A stretch of DNA of 15,778 nucleotides, from assembly GCA_043805855.1 (NCBI GenBank), contig JAZDHP010000063.1, forward strand, positions 1 through 15,778, written 5' to 3'. This DNA is from Candidatus Micrarchaeota archaeon. GTDB taxonomy: Archaea > Micrarchaeota > Micrarchaeia > Norongarragalinales > UBA8480. Under the pieces are notes generated by a model. That model was given only the letters and a program-made list of their open reading frames with translations. It ran no database searches and was not told the origin of the DNA. Numbering within the stretch: position 1 is the stretch's first letter; every line of letters begins with the position of its first letter. The position numbers and the translations under genes are program-made. Shown here piece by piece: positions 4,855 through 14,039 of the stretch.

Positions 4855-6816
4855 TTACAATACTATCAATGCAACTGTGAATGAAGCTGCGAATAGCAGT
4901 GCAATTGTGTTCAACACTTTGATTAAAGAGTTGAGCGCTGGGCCTGCAGTGTCCTTAAATGGATCGCCGACTGTATCGCCTACAACTGCTGCTTTGTGGC
5001 TATCGCTCCCTTTGCCACCGTGTACGCCAGTTTCAACTAACTTCTTAGCGTTGTCCCAAGCTGCACCTGCGTTTGACATAAACACGGCAAGAAGGAAACC
5101 AGAAGCAATTGCGCCAGCTAATAATCCCCCGAGCGCAGCTGCGCCGAACACATAGCCGACAATTAACGGCGAAAGCACTGCAATTAAACCCGGAACCATC
5201 AACTCGTTCAAAGCTGCGCCGGTGCTTATTGAAACGCAACGCGCGTAATCAGGTTTACCTTTTCCACTCATTAAGCCTTTAATTTCACGGAACTGACGGC
5301 GTACTTCTTCAACAATTTGATGTGCCGCGCGGCTCACTGCCTTCATTAGAAATGAGGCAAAGAGAAACGGTAACAATGCGCCGATGAACAAGCCAATTAC
5401 TACAACGGGACTAAGGAGGTTAATTACAGTTAAGTTAGTTGCCTCTGCAAACGCACCGAACAACGCCAACGCGCCTAGCGCTGCGCCTGCAATTGCAAAA
5501 CCTTTAGTTGTAGCTTTTGTTGTGTTGCCAACTGCGTCGAGCGCGTCAGTAATATTGCGTACTTTTGACGGCAAGTGAGCCATTTCTGCAATGCCGCCAG
5601 CGTTGTCCGTAATTGGGCCATAAGCGTCGAGCGCGATGATTATACCAGTTAACGATAACATTGCTGCTGCGGCTAACGCGATTCCATATAACCCCGCAAA
5701 GTAGTACGAGAAAATTATAGAGAGGATGACAATTATCATCATTGGAGCAGTGCTTTGCATTCCAACTGCAAGTCCACTAATGACGTTAGTGCCTGCACCG
5801 GTTGTTGACGCGTCTGCCACTTCTCTAACTGGCTTACCTTCGCGAGTAGTATAGTAGTCAGTAACCATGACAATCAACGCGCTTGCAATTATTCCAACTG
5901 CAGCTGCGCCCATTAAATCAAGGTCGTTTCGGAACAGTGCGATTACGCCAATTAGTGACAAGATGCACGTTGCGAAGAAACCTTTGTAAAGTGCGCCCAT
6001 GATGTTCTTTGATTTGCCGAGTTTGACAAAGTAAGCTCCGACGATTGTTGCAACTGCGAGGATTCCAGCCATTGTCAACGGGAGGAAAACATATTGTTCT
6101 CCAAGCGCACCGCCAAGTAACATCGCTGCAATTAATGTAACAACATATGATTCAAACAAGTCAGCCGCCATTCCTGCACAGTCTCCAACGTTGTCTCCAA
6201 CGTTGTCTGCAATTACAGCTGGGTTACGCGGGTCGTCTTCTGGAATTCCCTTTTCTATCTTACCAACGAGATCTGCACCAACGTCAGCTGCTTTTGTGTA
6301 AATTCCACCGCCAACTCGAGCAAATAGAGAAATTATAGAAGCTCCAAACCCAAAGCCAATCAACGCATTAACGTCGTTGAAAACATAGTAAAGTGAGGAA
6401 ACTCCAATTAGCCCGAGGCCGATTAGTGCAAGTCCAGTTACTTCTCCGCCTTTAAACGCAACGTCAAGCGCGTTTTGCATTCCACTGCTAGCAGCTTGTG
6501 CCGTGCGAACATTAGCACGAACGCTGACCATCATACCAATAAAGCCAGCAAGCGCTGATAGTATAACTCCTACTAGGAACGAAACGGCAAGTGGCATTCC
6601 AAGGAAGTAGTAAATTATAGCAGCCAGGACAATGACAAACGGAAGTAAAGTAGTGTACTGCTTTTTGAGATAGGCCATTGCACCTTCGCGAATAGCTGCA
6701 GATATCTCCTGCATTTTTGCACTGCCAGCTGGCCGTGACAAAATCCACTTAATTAAATAAGCGGCAAACAACAGCGTAACTAAACCAATAGCCGCTGGAA
6801 AAACTAAATCCACCAT
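4855..6816 (-). CDS. hppA: Membrane-bound H+-translocating pyrophosphatase, predicted K+-independent
   Basis: Motifs GGGIYTKAADVGADLVGK, EDDPRNPAVIADNVGDNVGD, DAYGPITDNAGGIAEM, GAAWDNAKK and GDTVGDPFKDTAGP. GNTTKA has Lys at the K+-dependence position. Highly hydrophobic, 653 aa. Confidence 0.97.
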   Translation of the reverse strand: MVDLVFPAAIGLVTLLFAAYLIKWILSRPAGSAKMQEISAAIREGAMAYLKKQYTTLLPFVIVLAAIIYYFLGMPLAVSFLVGVILSALAGFIGMMVSVRANVRTAQAASSGMQNALDVAFKGGEVTGLALIGLGLIGVSSLYYVFNDVNALIGFGFGASIISLFARVGGGIYTKAADVGADLVGKIEKGIPEDDPRNPAVIADNVGDNVGDCAGMAADLFESYVVTLIAAMLLGGALGEQYVFLPLTMAGILAVATIVGAYFVKLGKSKNIMGALYKGFFATCILSLIGVIALFRNDLDLMGAAAVGIIASALIVMVTDYYTTREGKPVREVADASTTGAGTNVISGLAVGMQSTAPMMIIVILSIIFSYYFAGLYGIALAAAAMLSLTGIIIALDAYGPITDNAGGIAEMAHLPSKVRNITDALDAVGNTTKATTKGFAIAGAALGALALFGAFAEATNLTVINLLSPVVVIGLFIGALLPFLFASFLMKAVSRAAHQIVEEVRRQFREIKGLMSGKGKPDYARCVSISTGAALNELMVPGLIAVLSPLIVGYVFGAAALGGLLAGAIASGFLLAVFMSNAGAAWDNAKKLVETGVHGGKGSDSHKAAVVGDTVGDPFKDTAGPALNSLIKVLNTIALLFAASFTVALIVL

Positions 6817-7613: not shown

Positions 7614-10238
7614 TCACTTTAACCCCAACAATCCCTTTAGCAAGGTAGAAATGCTTTTTACAATTTGTGTTACAATATCTGGCTTAACGTGCAAGCCGCG
7701 TTTTATTCCAACGTCTTGGTCAAGTTCGTTAAACCACCCGCGCTTGAGAACTTCCTCACCGTAAAAATCATTAACTTGGTTAGCGGCACTGTAAAGTTTA
7801 AACTGACCTTGCGCGCCCATTATAAAATCGTAGCGCATTAAGTCAAAAGAACTCGAAGCTGAATCAATAGAGCCTTTTTCTTCAATTAAAAAGCGCACAA
7901 AGCTAAATGCCGCGCCGTAGTAAATGTGGTCAAAGTCAACTAAATTCTTGTCCATTTCGTTTTCGTTCAACCACGAAGTTTTGCGAAGAGCGTCGTTTTC
8001 AACAGTATCGAGATAACTTCGTTCAGAGTCAGTTAAGTAGCCAATGAAAATCTCTTCACGCTGTTCAGAAACACTACGCTTTGTAGGCGCGTTGTTCGCT
8101 TTTTTAAACCAGTAAAGATAAGCGCCGTACTCTGCTAAACCTTCGCGGAACCACAGAGGCACGCGTTTATATTCACCGCTTTGATTAAGTGCAAAACCAT
8201 TAAAATGATAGTGAATTAACTCGTGTGCAATTGCGTTTATTTGCATTTCCTCTGGAGAATATCCTCCAAAATTCTTGTAAGTTGACTTGTAAGGCACTGT
8301 CAACGTGTTTGTAACGTCATCCCAACTTGCAGTAGTTTCACTTGCACTCATTTGCAAAGTAATGTACTTATCGTTAGAACGCGGGCCATCGTAATACTGA
8401 GTTAGCGAAATATCATTGAAACCCCGCACTAGCGTCGGGTAAACGTCTTCTTCAATTAACTTCGCAACTGCATCAGCTTCGGGGTTATTCGGCTGTATAA
8501 CCGTAACCAAATCTAAATATTTTGCATTTGTTTGCTGCGTTGAAGGCGGCGGGGTTATTTCTGTTGAAGGCGTTTGAGTTTGATCGCTTGTTGAAGAAGT
8601 TGATTCAGATGAACTTCCACTACTGCAAATTTCAACGTTGTCAAAAGTGTCAAAAAGCTCTCCAAAAGCAGCGTCCCACGCGTCTTTTGCAATGAACGTC
8701 AAATAAAGTTTATCCCTGCCAGCCACATCTACAAACAAATCACACGACTTACTAGTTGAATACTTAGCCAAGCCACAACGAGCTAAAGCAACTGTAGTAT
8801 CTTTAATTACACAATTGTTATCCCAATCCCCTATAGTGCCTCCGCAAGTTGACAATTCTGAACTCTTGTCACTTGAAAACACTAACATTTCAACATAATT
8901 ATCATAGTGAATTTCTCCACTTGTTGTACTTAAGTCTGCTTTTACGTGCAATGTGTCCATTCCAGAAACGTTAATCTCTTTAATTGCATAGGCGCGCCAC
9001 TGCCCTTCTTCATACCCACAGCCAACTTTGAAATGCCCGTTTTCAGCTTCCTGCATCCACGAACGACAAGAGTAACCAGCACGATCGCTTCTAAAAACCT
9101 TCGCGTCACGAAAGTCAACTGCACGACAACCTGAAGCTGGCGAAGAACTTGGAGACTCTAAACCAACTTCATAGGCGTCAGGCGTTACTAAAAAGTGTTC
9201 AGCATTACACTTATAAGTAGCTCCTTTTACAACCACACTTGTTCCAGGAGTTTCAGAACAACACTTTCTATAAACCGGACAGCAAACTCCATTTGCATTT
9301 GTAACAATGCCCTGGTTAGTTGAATAGTCATCGCCGTACAAGTTACAATTCTTTGACTCACACTCTTGATAATAAGTACAACTACCACCGCTAGCCTTTG
9401 GCGGCTCAGTAATGTCCCTAATTACAGTATAATCTGCACTGCACACAACTGCCCCAGAATCTGCATTTACAGAGCCGCGGTTAACATGGCAACACCGGTT
9501 TCCAGCAGCGCAGCACGTTCCACTGCGATCTTCACTTGCGGTTGTGCCAAACCAATTGCAATTACCGGTCAAACATTCAGAATTACCATAGCAAGATTGG
9601 CCAACTGCACGATCAGTAACTGAACCCTTTACACAAACGCCATTTCCAGTGCACTTGTAACCTTCAAACTCCTCGCAATCCCAATTGTGCTTACACGCAC
9701 AAACGCCACTCGTACAAATTCGCGAGTGGCAATCGTTATTCACAGAGCAAGTTTTAACTGAACTTGAAGAAACAGAAGAAGCCGACGTAGTAGACGATGA
9801 ACTTGAAGTAGAGGACGAGCTTGAAGTGGAAGTTGAACTTGACGAACTTGAATATGAAACGCAGTAATGTAATGACGTGTCGCACTTCTCGTAACGACCA
9901 GACCACCCGTTGCAGTCTGAGTTAAACTCACAGCACTGTTTTCCAGCCTCACAGCAAACGAAGTCATGGCAATTGCCAGAAGCGCAAGCCCAATTATCGT
10001 CCATTATATTCAAGCCAATTGCACTGTAACCACAGCCGCCACCGTTTTGAACCCACCCCTTGTCACGGCAATAGCCATTCATAGAAGAAGAGGAGGAACC
10101 CCAGCAAAACTGTCCATCCGGGCAACTAGACTGATAGCCAGGGGTATTACAATTCACAGCAAATACAATAGAAGAACAAAATAAAAGCAAAAGGCAAAAA
10201 GCTAGTTTTAAACCCAAGAGTTTAAATTTAAAAACCAT
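7614..10238 (-). CDS. Secreted Cys-rich protein with C-terminal gluzincin (Peptidase MA-like) metallopeptidase domain, 874 aa
   Basis: ATG 10238 gives a signal peptide (MVFKFKLLGLKLAFCLLLLFCSSIVFA) and sits 23-30 nt below a TATA, so it is preferred over the TTG at 10286. Cys-rich repeats and Ser/Thr linkers are followed by HELIH (8211-8225), PLWFREGLAEY (EGLAEY 8127-8144) and YYGAAFSFVRFL. Ends in an amphipathic C-terminal helix. Confidence 0.85.
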   Translation of the reverse strand: MVFKFKLLGLKLAFCLLLLFCSSIVFAVNCNTPGYQSSCPDGQFCWGSSSSSMNGYCRDKGWVQNGGGCGYSAIGLNIMDDNWACASGNCHDFVCCEAGKQCCEFNSDCNGWSGRYEKCDTSLHYCVSYSSSSSSTSTSSSSSTSSSSSTTSASSVSSSSVKTCSVNNDCHSRICTSGVCACKHNWDCEEFEGYKCTGNGVCVKGSVTDRAVGQSCYGNSECLTGNCNWFGTTASEDRSGTCCAAGNRCCHVNRGSVNADSGAVVCSADYTVIRDITEPPKASGGSCTYYQECESKNCNLYGDDYSTNQGIVTNANGVCCPVYRKCCSETPGTSVVVKGATYKCNAEHFLVTPDAYEVGLESPSSSPASGCRAVDFRDAKVFRSDRAGYSCRSWMQEAENGHFKVGCGYEEGQWRAYAIKEINVSGMDTLHVKADLSTTSGEIHYDNYVEMLVFSSDKSSELSTCGGTIGDWDNNCVIKDTTVALARCGLAKYSTSKSCDLFVDVAGRDKLYLTFIAKDAWDAAFGELFDTFDNVEICSSGSSSESTSSTSDQTQTPSTEITPPPSTQQTNAKYLDLVTVIQPNNPEADAVAKLIEEDVYPTLVRGFNDISLTQYYDGPRSNDKYITLQMSASETTASWDDVTNTLTVPYKSTYKNFGGYSPEEMQINAIAHELIHYHFNGFALNQSGEYKRVPLWFREGLAEYGAYLYWFKKANNAPTKRSVSEQREEIFIGYLTDSERSYLDTVENDALRKTSWLNENEMDKNLVDFDHIYYGAAFSFVRFLIEEKGSIDSASSSFDLMRYDFIMGAQGQFKLYSAANQVNDFYGEEVLKRGWFNELDQDVGIKRGLHVKPDIVTQIVKSISTLLKGLLGLK
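9258..10043 (-). repeat. Three Cys-rich protein repeats in the peptidase N-terminal region
   Basis: GGGC...CASGNC...CCEAGKQCC; GQSC...CLTGNC...CCAAGNRCC; GGSC...CESKNC...CCPVYRKCC. Confidence 0.7.
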
Positions 10239-10260
10239 GAAAAAGACAACTGCACAAGAG

Positions 10261-10268
10261 TATAAAAA
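10261..10268 (-). promoter_or_regulatory. TATA box for the peptidase gene (leaderless)
   Basis: TTTTTATA on the minus strand, 23-30 nt upstream of ATG 10238. Confidence 0.5.
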
Positions 10269-10315
10269 ACACCCAGGCGAAACCAACTAAAAGGCACAGC
10301 GCGCTAATTATTCCA

Positions 10316-10364
10316 ATGATGAAACCGTCCCAGTCTGACTCATGATGACCAAGGTAGCTTCTGA
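10316..10364 (+). ncRNA. Archaeal box C/D methylation-guide sRNA (double guide, predicted 23S rRNA targets)
   Basis: C box ATGATGA (10316-10322), 12-nt guide AACCGTCCCAGT, D' CTGA (10335-10338), CTC spacer, C' ATGATGA (10342-10348), 12-nt guide CCAAGGTAGCTT, D CTGA (10361-10364). Intergenic and followed by a T-tract. Both guides are complementary to conserved 23S domain V sequences as recalled. Confidence 0.92.
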
Positions 10365-10371
10365 CAAAAGA

Positions 10372-10383
10372 TCTTTTTCTTTT
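10372..10383 (+). terminator. Oligo-T terminator after the C/D sRNA
   Basis: TCTTTTTCTTTT 7 nt after the D box. It is the only long plus-strand T-tract in this otherwise A-rich spacer. Confidence 0.55.
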
Positions 10384-10391
10384 ACGAAAAG

Positions 10392-10554
10392 AAAAAGCTC
10401 TTTTAGACTTCAAAAAGAAAAACTAAACTCCAAGAAAAAGAAAAGAACAAAAAGCCCTTTTATACTCCAAAAAGAATTAACTCCGAGAAAAAGAAAACGA
10501 GAAAAAACTCTTTTATACAAAAAGAAAAATTTAGACTTCAAGAAAAAGAAAACG
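10392..10554. repeat. Degenerate A-rich tandem repeat, 3 units of 57/53/53 bp
   Basis: Units start at 10392 (AAAAAGCTCTTTTAGACTTCAAAAAGAA...), 10449 (AAAAAGCCCTTTTATACTCCAAAAAGAA...) and 10502 (AAAAAACTCTTTTATACAAAAAGAA...). Each ends near ACT[TC]C[AG]AGAAAAAGAAAA. Confidence 0.7.
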
Positions 10555-10593
10555 AAAAAACTTATTTCACCAATGATTTAACAGGTTATTTAC

Positions 10594-11661
10594 ATGCAGT
10601 GGTTTGACCAGATTTTAAAAAGTTCCAACGCGGCAATTGAACTAAATGGCAATCTACATTACACGCCGTTTAACCCTTACACTTCTCTATGGCCACTTTA
10701 TTCAAAAGAGTGGCTCGACTGGTTGTACGTTGCGTTTGAAAAAAGCAAGCAAAAAAACTCAACAATTCGCGAGCTGGCGTTTGGCTTCTTGGGACCGCAG
10801 TTAATTAGAAAAACGTTGGTTGACGTCGCGTTCATGTCAAAAGCGTGCAGCTACGACAAACAAAAGACAACTCAACTATTAACCTGGCTTAAGGACATTT
10901 TACTAGAGAAGTGTACTGGCGACCCGTTTGGATTCGAGTCAAACCAAGTGCTCAGTAAAGAAGATTTAAAATATTTAATGCAAATGTTTCCATTTCACCC
11001 GCCAGCTGAAGGCGAAGCACAAGCAGCAATGCAACTAGTGAAAAACTGCGAGGCACTAACTCAAGTTAACTTTCTCTGGAACACTCAAGAGTGGTTCGAC
11101 ACTTACGGCCCATACCCGTTGCCTTCGGGAAGAAAAATAATTCTACACGCATTTACCAATTTCGAGCCAGTTGAAATATTTCCACACGCTGCTGGTTTTG
11201 ACCCGTCGACAATTTATATATATTCAATTCACGACAACGCAGAAATCAAAATAGATTACTACGGGAGAACGAACAGCAAAGCGCCGCTCACGGAAACTAT
11301 GACTAGTTTGTTAATTTTTGAACACGGTAGACTAGTAAAAGACCAAATGCGAATAACTGAGCTAAACGCTTTACTGCAAGAAGAAACACAAAAACAAGCA
11401 ATGCGAATGCAAGCTCTTGACGCGGAACAGTTAAAAGAAAAAGAAGTTGAACTTCATTGTTATATGTACCGTGAACTGTTTAAGCTACTTGAACTTGACT
11501 GGAAGCCAACTGAAGAAATGAAAAACGCAGTAAAAGGCAAAGCGTTGTTGAAATTTGAAACACCAGCTTTTGAAAACGAAACGCAAAAACGCGAATACTG
11601 GAACAAACTGCTTAATCCAAACGATGACTTTTTCCCGCAAGAGCTTAAGCTAGATAATTAA
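10594..11661 (+). CDS. Hypothetical soluble protein (355 aa)
   Basis: Long ORF with globular composition and no signal peptide or TM segment. CGAAAAAACTTATTT (10553-10567) upstream is promoter-like. No family recognised. Confidence 0.85.
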   Translation: MQWFDQILKSSNAAIELNGNLHYTPFNPYTSLWPLYSKEWLDWLYVAFEKSKQKNSTIRELAFGFLGPQLIRKTLVDVAFMSKACSYDKQKTTQLLTWLKDILLEKCTGDPFGFESNQVLSKEDLKYLMQMFPFHPPAEGEAQAAMQLVKNCEALTQVNFLWNTQEWFDTYGPYPLPSGRKIILHAFTNFEPVEIFPHAAGFDPSTIYIYSIHDNAEIKIDYYGRTNSKAPLTETMTSLLIFEHGRLVKDQMRITELNALLQEETQKQAMRMQALDAEQLKEKEVELHCYMYRELFKLLELDWKPTEEMKNAVKGKALLKFETPAFENETQKREYWNKLLNPNDDFFPQELKLDN

Positions 11662-11714: not shown

Positions 11715-14039
11715 CTACTTGCCGCCGACAATGTTGGCAAGCATACTGACTATTCCGCCGGCGTTTAACTGACGTGCTTTGGCGTCTTTTTCTAGCGCTG
11801 TAATTTCAGCGTCGAGTTGTGCAAGTTGCTGGTCGCAAACTGGTTTAGCTGCCTCGTTTGCTTTGCTGCAAATATCTTGAAGTGCAGTTTTAGCCGCGTT
11901 TAATTTAACAACTTGTTCCTGTTGCTTCTTTGCAAGTTCAGTTTCTTCTTGTTGGCGCATTCCAAACAACTTCATTAAATCTTTGAGAACGTCAGCGCGT
12001 ATATCTTGCTTTAACTTTTCAAGTTCTCCTGCGGTTAGGACAATTTTGTCACTTGCCGCTGACTTTAGCACTGAATCTTCCTGCGCTCCAGAACTTAAGT
12101 TAAGCCGGTCAAGCATTTCAACAGTGTTTCTCAATGCACCGCTTTGTTGCATTAACGCCATTTTACTGCATTCAACTTGCGCTTTTTGCTTAATGATTTC
12201 AACTACTTTATCGCGAGTCGCTAACTTCTTACAAGCTGTTAACGCGTCTTTAACCATTTTACAGCTTTCAGTTGTTCGCTTCTTACAGTTCTCGTAAGGT
12301 GAACCGTACTTCGCTTGTTCGTCGCAGAAACGGCCGAAGTTGTTGCCATTCATTTGGAATTCGTTCTTACACATTTGTGCAATGTCAGATTCAGACGGTT
12401 GGTTTTGCTTGAAGCCCTCTAAACAACGTGAAATGAACGCTTCTTTAGTACAAACCATTTCACCTTGGCCACCGCCAAAACCGCCTTGTGGCCCCATTGG
12501 ACCCTGTTGACCCATTCCTCCTTGTGGACCAAAATTACCTTGTTGCGGCATCATACCCTGCGGACCAAAATTACCTTGTGGCCCCATTTGGCCGCCCATC
12601 ATCGGGCCAGCTTCAAATAAACCAGTTACACGTGAAGGAGTTTGGTTAACTGGAGGCTGTATTTGATCTGCAACACAAGTTCCAGTTGGACAGCCACCGT
12701 TACTTGGGTTTAACACATAATGTTGCCCTGCGCCACATATCGGCTGTTGCGGACAAGGCTGTTGACCACCTGGAGGCATTTGAGTGTCTGGTATACAAAC
12801 TAAAGCCTGACAGCCATTGGGAGATGGAGAACCTGTAACGCTAGTTTCAATATGTTGTCCAGCACCGCATGTTGGCGCAGGCAGACACTGGCCTGAACCA
12901 GTACCAGTAGTTCCAGCTACACATTCATAACGCTGGCAATTGTTTGAGTCCATTCCACGTTGTTCAGAACGCTGCCCAGAACCACACATTGGGGGTTGCG
13001 GACAATTCATAATAGGAGGTTGTTGTCCAGATATGCATTCGTAATTTGGACAGCTACCAGCTTGTCCAGATCCACTTGACCTTGGATATTGACCAGAAGG
13101 ACATTGAGGTTGTGGACATTGCATATTCTGTTGACCCATTTGACCTTGTTGGTTCATTTGTCCTGGCTGTTGCCACTGGCCTTGCTGGTTATTCATTTGC
13201 GGGCCCATTTGACCTTGTTGATTATTAGATTGGCTACATTGTTGGGTTATTCTCTTGCCTTCCATTAGCCACGCGTTTTCACATGAAAGCGTAGCCATTT
13301 TATCTTGGCCAGTAAAGCGTTTACTACACATTGCAATGTACTTAGTTTCGTCAAACGGACAAGTTACCTCTTCACCGTTTGGACCGCGGGGGCCGCCCAT
13401 TGACTTTAAATCTTCACACATTATACTTGCTTTTTCACAGCGCTGTACCCCGTTTTCAAGTTGCTTGCATAAACTAGCAAAGTCAGAATCTTTAAACGTG
13501 GCACTTACCGTAGAAGCGATTTTGTCAACATCTGGACAAAGTGGTTTCAAAGTTTGCTCCGGGTTGCCAATTTTCTGGAATAGAATTGGACCAATAAAAC
13601 CCATTACCATATCTTCTTCGCTTAAACCTTGAAAATCAGGAATATAAGATGGGCCAAAGTTAACATTCACACCCTGCATAACTTGAACTTGTTTCATATC
13701 TTGACCTTGCGGCATCATTGGACCGCCAAAATTAGACGCTTGTCCAAAACCACCGCCTTCAAAATTAGGTGGAGACATATCACCAGGAAAACCAGGGCCA
13801 GTTCCAGGCGCGTAATTTGGGCCACCGCCCATACCTTGACCGCCGTCAAAGCCTCCTCCCTGAGGGCCCATACCTGGACCTTGAGGACCGCCAAAATCAC
13901 CGCCTTACGGACCCATTTGACCGGGGTTGCCATTTGGACCGCCGGCACCAGCTTGGCCAAACGGGCCAGGTTGGAACTGTGCTGAAACCAGCGCAGTTAC
14001 AAGTAATAAAATTGTAGAAATTACAGCTACGTTTTTCAT
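11715..14039 (-). CDS. Putative secreted Cys-rich, Gly/Gln/Pro/Met-rich surface protein (774 codons), interrupted by an in-frame TAA at codon 45 (candidate pseudogene or sequence error)
   Basis: ATG 14039 encodes a signal peptide MKNVAVISTILLLVTALVSA|QF, in frame with the 718-aa ORF starting at 13871. The only stop between them is TAA at 13905-13907, in GQMGP*GGDFGGPQG. The protein has MGPQG repeats, four 4-Cys repeats, and a helical Cys/coiled-coil C-terminus ending NAGGIVSMLANIVGGK. Confidence 0.8.
12484..12588 (-). repeat. DNA direct repeats encoding the QGNFGP / MGPQG low-complexity units
   Basis: GGACCAAAATTACCTTGT is exact at 12526-12543 and 12562-12579. CCTTGTGGCCCCATT occurs at 12484-12498 and 12574-12588. 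Confidence 0.7.
12675..13118 (-). repeat. Four tandem 4-Cys protein repeats (C-x4-5-C-x2-GQ...C-x4-C)
   Basis: CPQPQCPSGQ...CPNYEC; CPQPPMCGSGQ...CQRYEC; CLPAPTCGAGQ...CQALVC; CPQQPICGAGQ...CPTGTC. Confidence 0.75.

Follow-up and report, generated by a model that had tools for sequence, protein, structure and literature searches.

In archaeal box C/D small ribonucleoproteins (sRNPs), fibrillarin methylates the rRNA nucleotide that pairs with guide base five, counted upstream from box D' or box D (position N+5), and a guide spacer of ~12 nt is optimal. The equivalent of E. coli G2251, within the P-loop of 23S rRNA, is a near-universal site of this modification (Gm). Dennis 2015 (PMC4644070), in which alignment position G2520 is the counterpart of E. 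coli G2251, predicts methylation at this nucleotide in three of seven archaea; the guides named are Thermoproteus tenax sR7, Pyrobaculum calidifontis sR36, and two sRNAs of Methanopyrus kandleri. In supplements 1 and 2 of the same work, the predicted target of the D guide of Nanoarchaeum equitans sR14 is 23S U2712. This nucleotide, the U of AAGCUACC, is equivalent to U2438. Human SNORD31 (U31) and yeast snR67 guide the formation of Gm4196 and Gm2619, respectively, both of which correspond to E. coli Gm2251 (PMC7600485), and snR67 has a second target, Um2724 (PMC11121408). A literature search found no paper joining box sRNA, fibrillarin, and DPANN, and none joining box C/D sRNA and Micrarchaeota.

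The stretch of DNA analysed here (the window, 15,778 nt) is contig C63, one of 67 in a 1.03-Mb archaeal assembly that is rated 92% complete. Judged from its sequence, the plus strand at 10316-10364 most likely contains a stand-alone gene that encodes an archaeal box C/D sRNA with two guides, which would methylate the G2251 and U2438 equivalents. A pattern search of 41 genomes, in which the matches were read in context, yielded 15 clear homologues; these constitute alignment A1. The features of the locus are as follows.

10287-10294, plus strand: TATA-like element CTAAAAGG, a putative promoter element about 22-29 nt upstream of box C
10316-10322, plus strand: box C, ATGATGA, whose TGA.GA is invariant in alignment A1 (15/15) and kept in alignment A2
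10323-10334, plus strand: D' guide AACCGTCCCAGT, 12 nt, predicted to target the spliced 23S P-loop ACTGGGGCGGTA
10335-10338, plus strand: box D', CTGA, whose C1 pairs with G6 of box C'
10339-10341, plus strand: D'-C' linker, CTC, 3 nt, as read in the window
10342-10348, plus strand: box C', ATGATGA, read from the sequence and from alignments A1 and A2
10349-10360, plus strand: D guide CCAAGGTAGCTT, 12 nt, predicted to target 23S AAGCTACCCTGG, with an A.C mismatch at guide position 4
10361-10364, plus strand: box D, CTGA, whose first base is paired to G6 of box C in 15/15 sequences
10374-10378 and 10380-10383, plus strand: T5 and T4 tracts downstream of box D, a putative oligo-T terminator

Thus, boxes C, D', C' and D are all present, as the class requires, and each of the two spacers is exactly 12 nt. 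The initial annotation had described perfect boxes, two 12-nt guides and a trailing T-tract, and all of these are indeed read at 10316-10364 and 10374-10383. When both strands of the 1.03-Mb genome are searched with a strict four-box pattern (RTGATGA-N10-13-CTGA-N2-12-TGATGA-N10-13-CTGA), only two matches are obtained, the window sRNA and one other on contig C53; the same pattern has no match in any of 20 first-order Markov genomes. The sRNA alone folds no better than shuffled sequences (z +1.1), as expected for an RNA whose guides are open.

The sRNA lies in a gap between two divergent ORFs, one of 890 aa (7614-10286, minus strand) and one of 355 aa (10594-11661, plus strand), neither of which has a Pfam match. 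The only short ORFs that run across the sRNA, 10228-10413 (minus) and 10342-10581 (plus), likewise have no Pfam match, and at gathering thresholds Rfam finds nothing in the window. These results agree with the earlier description of an sRNA "hidden" beneath spurious ORFs. A search of the window for tRNA genes found none. A 53-nt A-rich tandem repeat (10390-10560; 3.1 copies, 78% matching) is present in the gap from the sRNA to the 355-aa ORF. The window also encodes a membrane H+-pyrophosphatase (4855-6816, minus; Pfam H_PPase, E 3e-269), and the four other long window ORFs that were scanned (226-890 aa) have no Pfam match.

The three proteins that the initial annotation had proposed looking for, fibrillarin, Nop5, and L7Ae, are all encoded in the genome. 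Fibrillarin (262.8 bits) adjoins Nop5 (191.6 bits) on contig C42, and L7Ae (98.7 bits) is present on contig C39; each exceeds its Pfam cut-off. By analogy with the established archaeal sRNP, the sRNA would form k-turns at C/D and at C'/D' and would bind L7Ae, Nop5, and fibrillarin, and the two 12-nt guides would then position fibrillarin on the G2251 equivalent (D' guide) and on the U2438 equivalent (D guide). Pairing to two strands of domain V would probably aid local folding as well, in keeping with the chaperone idea put forward in Dennis 2015. The 16S and 23S rRNA genes, both on contig C5, are far longer than the Rfam models. The 16S gene (C5:62463-64899, minus) spans 2437 nt compared with a model of 1478 positions, and therefore carries large insertions too. 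Despite the completeness rating of 92%, tRNA genes are few, six by the Rfam tRNA model (five over the cut-off) and 11 by ARAGORN. The scarcity of detectable tRNA genes could be due to missing contigs or to atypical tRNA genes.

On the genome's own spliced P-loop, the D' guide forms 10 Watson-Crick pairs and one G-U pair, and N+5 is the second G of the G run, engaged in a C-G pair. This G is the G2251 equivalent in the E. coli numbering of the P-loop. Among 30 homologues, the CCCAG core of the D' guide is invariant (30/30), and the guide T that generates the G-U wobble, at the position proximal to an exon junction discussed below, is present in 28. By itself, a D' match of this quality is not rare, since shuffled guides equal its score against 8.7 kb of rRNA in 219 of 3000 trials. 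A change on both sides of the duplex is seen in genus g3, in which position 5 of the D' guide is A and the P-loop reads GGGGTGG. In two genomes of this genus (G009 and G011), U replaces C at rRNA position 2254, opposite the guide A; a third (G005) has the same guide change, with the rRNA side read from G009 and G011 only.

The qualification "spliced" is needed since the raw 23S gene has no D' guide pairing of at least 10/12 at the P-loop. Infernal alignment reveals an insertion within the P-loop of this gene, a 797-nt intron (C5:57930-58726, minus) that separates the G2252 equivalent from the G2253 equivalent, and the order of the gene is GTTTGACTGGG, 797 nt, then GCGGTACGCC. In the same-genus relative G002, the P-loop intron is absent and the sequence is a contiguous GACTGGGGCGGTACGCC; thus, the spliced target is ACTGGGGCGGTA. 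The intron is of a mobile kind and carries a 221-aa LAGLIDADG ORF that is antisense to the rRNA. It splits the D' duplex into 6 nt in the 5' exon and 5 nt in the 3' exon, and in unspliced pre-rRNA only ACUGGG (6 bp, N+5 included) can pair with the D' guide. Because the intron lies inside the D' target, the 11-bp duplex can form only on spliced rRNA, and P-loop methylation in this genome would have to follow intron removal and exon ligation. The intron within the D' target thereby offers a natural test of whether C/D methylation can follow rRNA splicing.

The identical P-loop site is interrupted in five genomes of the order (this one, G042, G044, G024, and G022). When the ends of the intron are folded, CUGG of the 5' exon pairs with the 3'-terminal CCAG of the intron, so that the 5' splice site falls within a bulge of 3 nt; the geometry of a canonical bulge-helix-bulge (BHB) did not emerge. 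Judged by title, no work on archaeal P-loop introns is found among papers on rRNA introns, LAGLIDADG, or DPANN. The sRNA might have a role beyond methylation, bridging or proof-reading the P-loop at the point where its exons have been joined. In that case Gm2251 would be made only on correctly spliced 23S rRNA, and the junction-proximal G-U wobble would reflect a function tied to the recurrent intron site. We regard this added role as quite doubtful.

The target of the D guide, AAGCTACCCTGG, lies ~190 nt downstream of the P-loop target and corresponds to E. coli 2434-2445, a numbering obtained from the E. coli row of supplement 2 of Dennis 2015. Pairing to this sequence in the genome's own 23S is 11/12 Watson-Crick, and N+5 is the U2438 equivalent in an A-U pair. 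The own rRNA has C, not U, at 2442, giving a single A.C mismatch at guide position 4 (N+9). The duplex therefore consists of eight contiguous Watson-Crick pairs beside box D, the mismatch, and three more pairs. Shuffled guides equal the D score in 44 of 3000 trials (8.7 kb of rRNA). Both the D' and the D duplex have the ~9 bp or more, and the Watson-Crick pair at N+5, by which guides of this class are recognized, and for double guides the 9-bp rule is relaxed in Dennis 2015 (PMC4644070). Within a single genome, the guide-target evidence for the two arms is suggestive rather than decisive.

Most of what the initial annotation had predicted for the two guides is borne out by the genome's own rRNA (10 Watson-Crick pairs plus one G-U for D', 11/12 for D). 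The single G-U pair in the P-loop duplex and the placement of N+5 at G2251 were correctly foreseen. The D' target itself was found only on the spliced P-loop, and the contiguous target that had been supposed does not exist in the gene, where 797 nt of intron divide it. For the D guide, the location at ~2434-2445 and the N+5 assignment to U2438 held, but the full complementarity that had been claimed gave way to 11/12, owing to the C at 2442.

Comparison among genomes adds to these single-genome matches. Position 3 of the D guide and rRNA position 2443 are paired in 8/8 genomes, as A-U in four (this genome, which is G000, together with G002, G038, and G020) and as G-C in the other four (G025, G031, G018, and G026). 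The A.C mismatch at 2442 is kept in all of the examined homologues that retain the D guide. In genus g3 the D duplex is reduced to the eight box-proximal pairs. In genus g2 (G004, G010, and G008; loci L061, L062, and L024), the D' guide is unchanged and an unrelated sequence, CCCAA(T/A)GACAGT(T)G, takes the place of the D guide; the rRNA of G004 has AAGGTACC in place of AAGCTACC.

The persistence of the mismatch bears on how the D arm is used. If only the D' arm of a genuine C/D sRNA methylates (at G2251), the D arm could be a non-methylating anchor or chaperone that holds 2434-2445 near the P-loop. Such an arrangement would accommodate an A.C mismatch at position 4 in every homologue with this D guide and the retention of the guide in genus g3 with only eight pairs, and there are precedents in Dennis 2015 (PMC4644070), in which some double guides have one arm that pairs without methylating and chaperone roles are proposed. 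However, the mismatch is at N+9, distant from N+5, and N+1 to N+8 are Watson-Crick and invariant. Furthermore, position 3, which is past the mismatch, co-varies with its target in all eight genomes, and the similar D guide of N. equitans sR14 is predicted to methylate the same U. A purely anchoring D arm is thus unlikely, although it deserves to be kept in mind, and methylation by both arms is the preferred reading.

It is much less probable that the sRNA is real but acts on tRNA, mRNA, or other RNAs, with its rRNA matches being coincidental. Of 489 archaeal sRNAs in Dennis 2015 (PMC4644070), 163 have no rRNA target, the tRNA comparison covers just 10 sequences from an assembly with few tRNA genes, and, among the matches listed, 11/12 guide matches elsewhere in the genome occur at about the chance rate. 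Against this, both guides match domain V of one rRNA, one of them at a nucleotide that is methylated almost universally, and both duplexes co-vary with the rRNA across genomes. Moreover, the best tRNA match has only 9/12 pairs (10 ARAGORN tRNA sequences of 11 genes).

A covariance model, R1, was used to search the order and a sample of the phylum. It finds a single copy of the sRNA in 52 of the order's 68 genomes, including 19 of the 22 that are of high quality. In the phylum-wide sample, where most families are positive, it finds one copy in 69 of 151 genomes. Within the same class, R1 finds no copy in 45 genomes of family f13 or in 25 genomes of family f14. Fibrillarin is encoded in all five of the f13/f14 genomes that were checked (G069, G070, G078, G083, and G089), and in these two families the guide may have diverged, or another may have taken its place. 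The family is thus conserved across most of the class and is unannotated, and its members can be annotated with model R1.

Boxes C and D are conserved in 30 homologues, and the D'-C' linker varies from 3 to 14 nt, forming a small hairpin in some. Compensatory changes are seen in the terminal stems, in one k-turn pair, and in both of the duplexes that the guides form with their targets. The k-turn pair, between C1 of box D' and G6 of box C', is C-G in 14 of 15 sequences and U-A in the remaining one. Terminal stems of 4-6 bp with compensatory changes are found in GC-richer relatives, and six of six stem pairs are changed on both sides. The covariation score of the stem is 0.314, compared with 0.170 for shuffles, and none of 500 shuffles reaches it. 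Only 50% of cells in the stem are paired, and the window copy has no terminal stem. By tblastn (E <=1e-5), the four ORFs that flank the sRNA in the window have no match in the sRNA loci of 34 relatives (L044-L078, minus the window's own L046). Thus, the flanking genes are not conserved and the RNA itself is what is kept.

Transcription signals are less distinct. An all-A/T heptamer starting between -42 and -28 relative to box C is found in 19 of 30 homologues, compared with 7-11 of 30 in four control windows, and is consistent with a putative TATA-like promoter element at 10287-10294. The element in the window is weaker, as it is interrupted by a C and G's. Four or more consecutive T within 25 nt past box D are found in 13 of the 30 homologues, which is weak evidence for the oligo-T tract as a transcription terminator. 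That the locus is no gene at all, its short motifs having come together by chance in A/T-rich intergenic DNA, is scarcely credible: the lack of an Rfam match at gathering thresholds and of a terminal stem in the window copy would suit it, but it is already contradicted by the conservation data, with single-copy homologues in 52/68 genomes of the order that keep boxes and guides amid unrelated flanks, and by two real pattern matches as opposed to none in each of the 20 simulated genomes.

The second match to the strict pattern, on contig C53 at about 13330-13379 (minus), is also a canonical double-guide C/D sRNA, with the layout GTGATGA / ACCTGAACAACCT / CTGA / CTT / GTGATGA / AGTTGATAGCGG / CTGA. 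The D' guide of this sRNA is complementary to the genome's own A-loop, GGGTTGTTCATCC, such that the U2552 equivalent is at N+5. The D guide forms nine Watson-Crick and three G-U pairs with TCGCTATCGGCT (E. coli 2500-2511), with the U2504 equivalent at N+5. The pattern of this sRNA is found in 22 of 41 genomes, compared with three control matches, and the full dual-guide layout is present in most. In a relaxed scan for single units (C-box/12-nt/CTGA, with at least 9 bp to rRNA), 11 were found in the real genome and 5 in the reversed genome; past the two canonical sRNAs, this signal is near noise.

The 23S gene has other peculiarities in the same region. Two further insertions in the peptidyl-transferase region (C5, about 56700-57730, minus) lie just downstream of the D target. 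One, of 679 nt, follows GGGGGTAA and precedes CAGGCTCG, contains a sense 188-aa LAGLIDADG ORF, and is common to G002; the other, of 276 nt, follows GAGAGTTCAT. In addition, the lineage has G at 2448 (GGGGGTAAC). Positions 2503 and 2505 of 23S rRNA are near-universal. At the equivalents of E. coli 2496-2505, the 23S of the order (L032-L043) reads TACATCGCTATCGGC, compared with CACCUCGAUGUCGGC in the E. coli row of the Dennis supplement. The difference, CGCTATC versus CGAUGUC, puts a C at 2503 and an A at 2505; in genus g3 the segment is CGCGGTC. The variant 23S sequence is matched by the D guide of the C53 sRNA.

Together, the two canonical sRNAs aim at the equivalents of the P-loop G2251 and the A-loop U2552, plus two neighbouring sites in the peptidyl-transferase centre. 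A lineage of the host-dependent type, with a genome of ~1 Mb, would thus appear to keep RNA-guided methylation of the catalytic core of its ribosome. This choice of targets is in keeping with the idea that, of its rRNA ribose methylations, a cell gives these up last.

How closely the window sRNA resembles known RNAs can be stated at several levels. Its best sub-threshold Rfam match is SNORD31 (RF00089; 33.6 bits, E 2e-6). Membership was rejected, as the gathering threshold is 40 bits and the likeness is found only in the boxes, the D' guide, and a portion of the D guide. Membership of the archaeal Rfam sRNA families (sR12, snoPyro_CD, sR14, sR1, and others) was also rejected, because their thresholds are not reached; the best of these matches are to sR12 (22.5 bits, threshold 38) and snoPyro_CD (21.2 bits, threshold 45). 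The Rfam SNORD31 consensus and the window sRNA have in common the D' guide and box ACCG.CCCAGUCUGA. The second sites differ, since by an offset estimate Um2724, the second target of snR67, is not the U2438 equivalent. The guide common to SNORD31/snR67 and the window sRNA may reflect an invariant target rather than common descent. In bacteria and mitochondria the same P-loop nucleotide is modified by RlmB and by MRM1/Pet56, respectively (PMC7600485); unlike the window sRNA, these are stand-alone SPOUT enzymes that use no guide RNA.

The closest relatives in function are archaeal. T. tenax sR7, P. calidifontis sR36, and the M. kandleri sRNAs belong to the same class of RNP and have the same architecture and the same predicted N+5 target in the P-loop. 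Their second sites are U2544, G2546, G2490, and G2564 (Dennis numbering), whereas that of the window sRNA is the U2438 equivalent. These organisms are hyperthermophiles with large sets of sRNAs, in contrast to the 1-Mb genome examined here, in which two canonical double-guide sRNAs were found. The D guide of N. equitans sR14, AAGGAGTAGCTG, as given in the supplements, is closely similar to the D guide of the present family (..GAGTAGCTT in other orders), but its D' guide is listed there without a predicted target, while the D' guide of the window sRNA is directed to the P-loop. Thus, given the guides reported in Dennis 2015, among them N. equitans sR14, and U31/snR67, the mechanism and both target sites are already known or predicted in other archaea, and the window sRNA is otherwise an ordinary example of its class. 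What is particular here is that both sites are paired in one RNA, together with the breadth of this RNA in its lineage.
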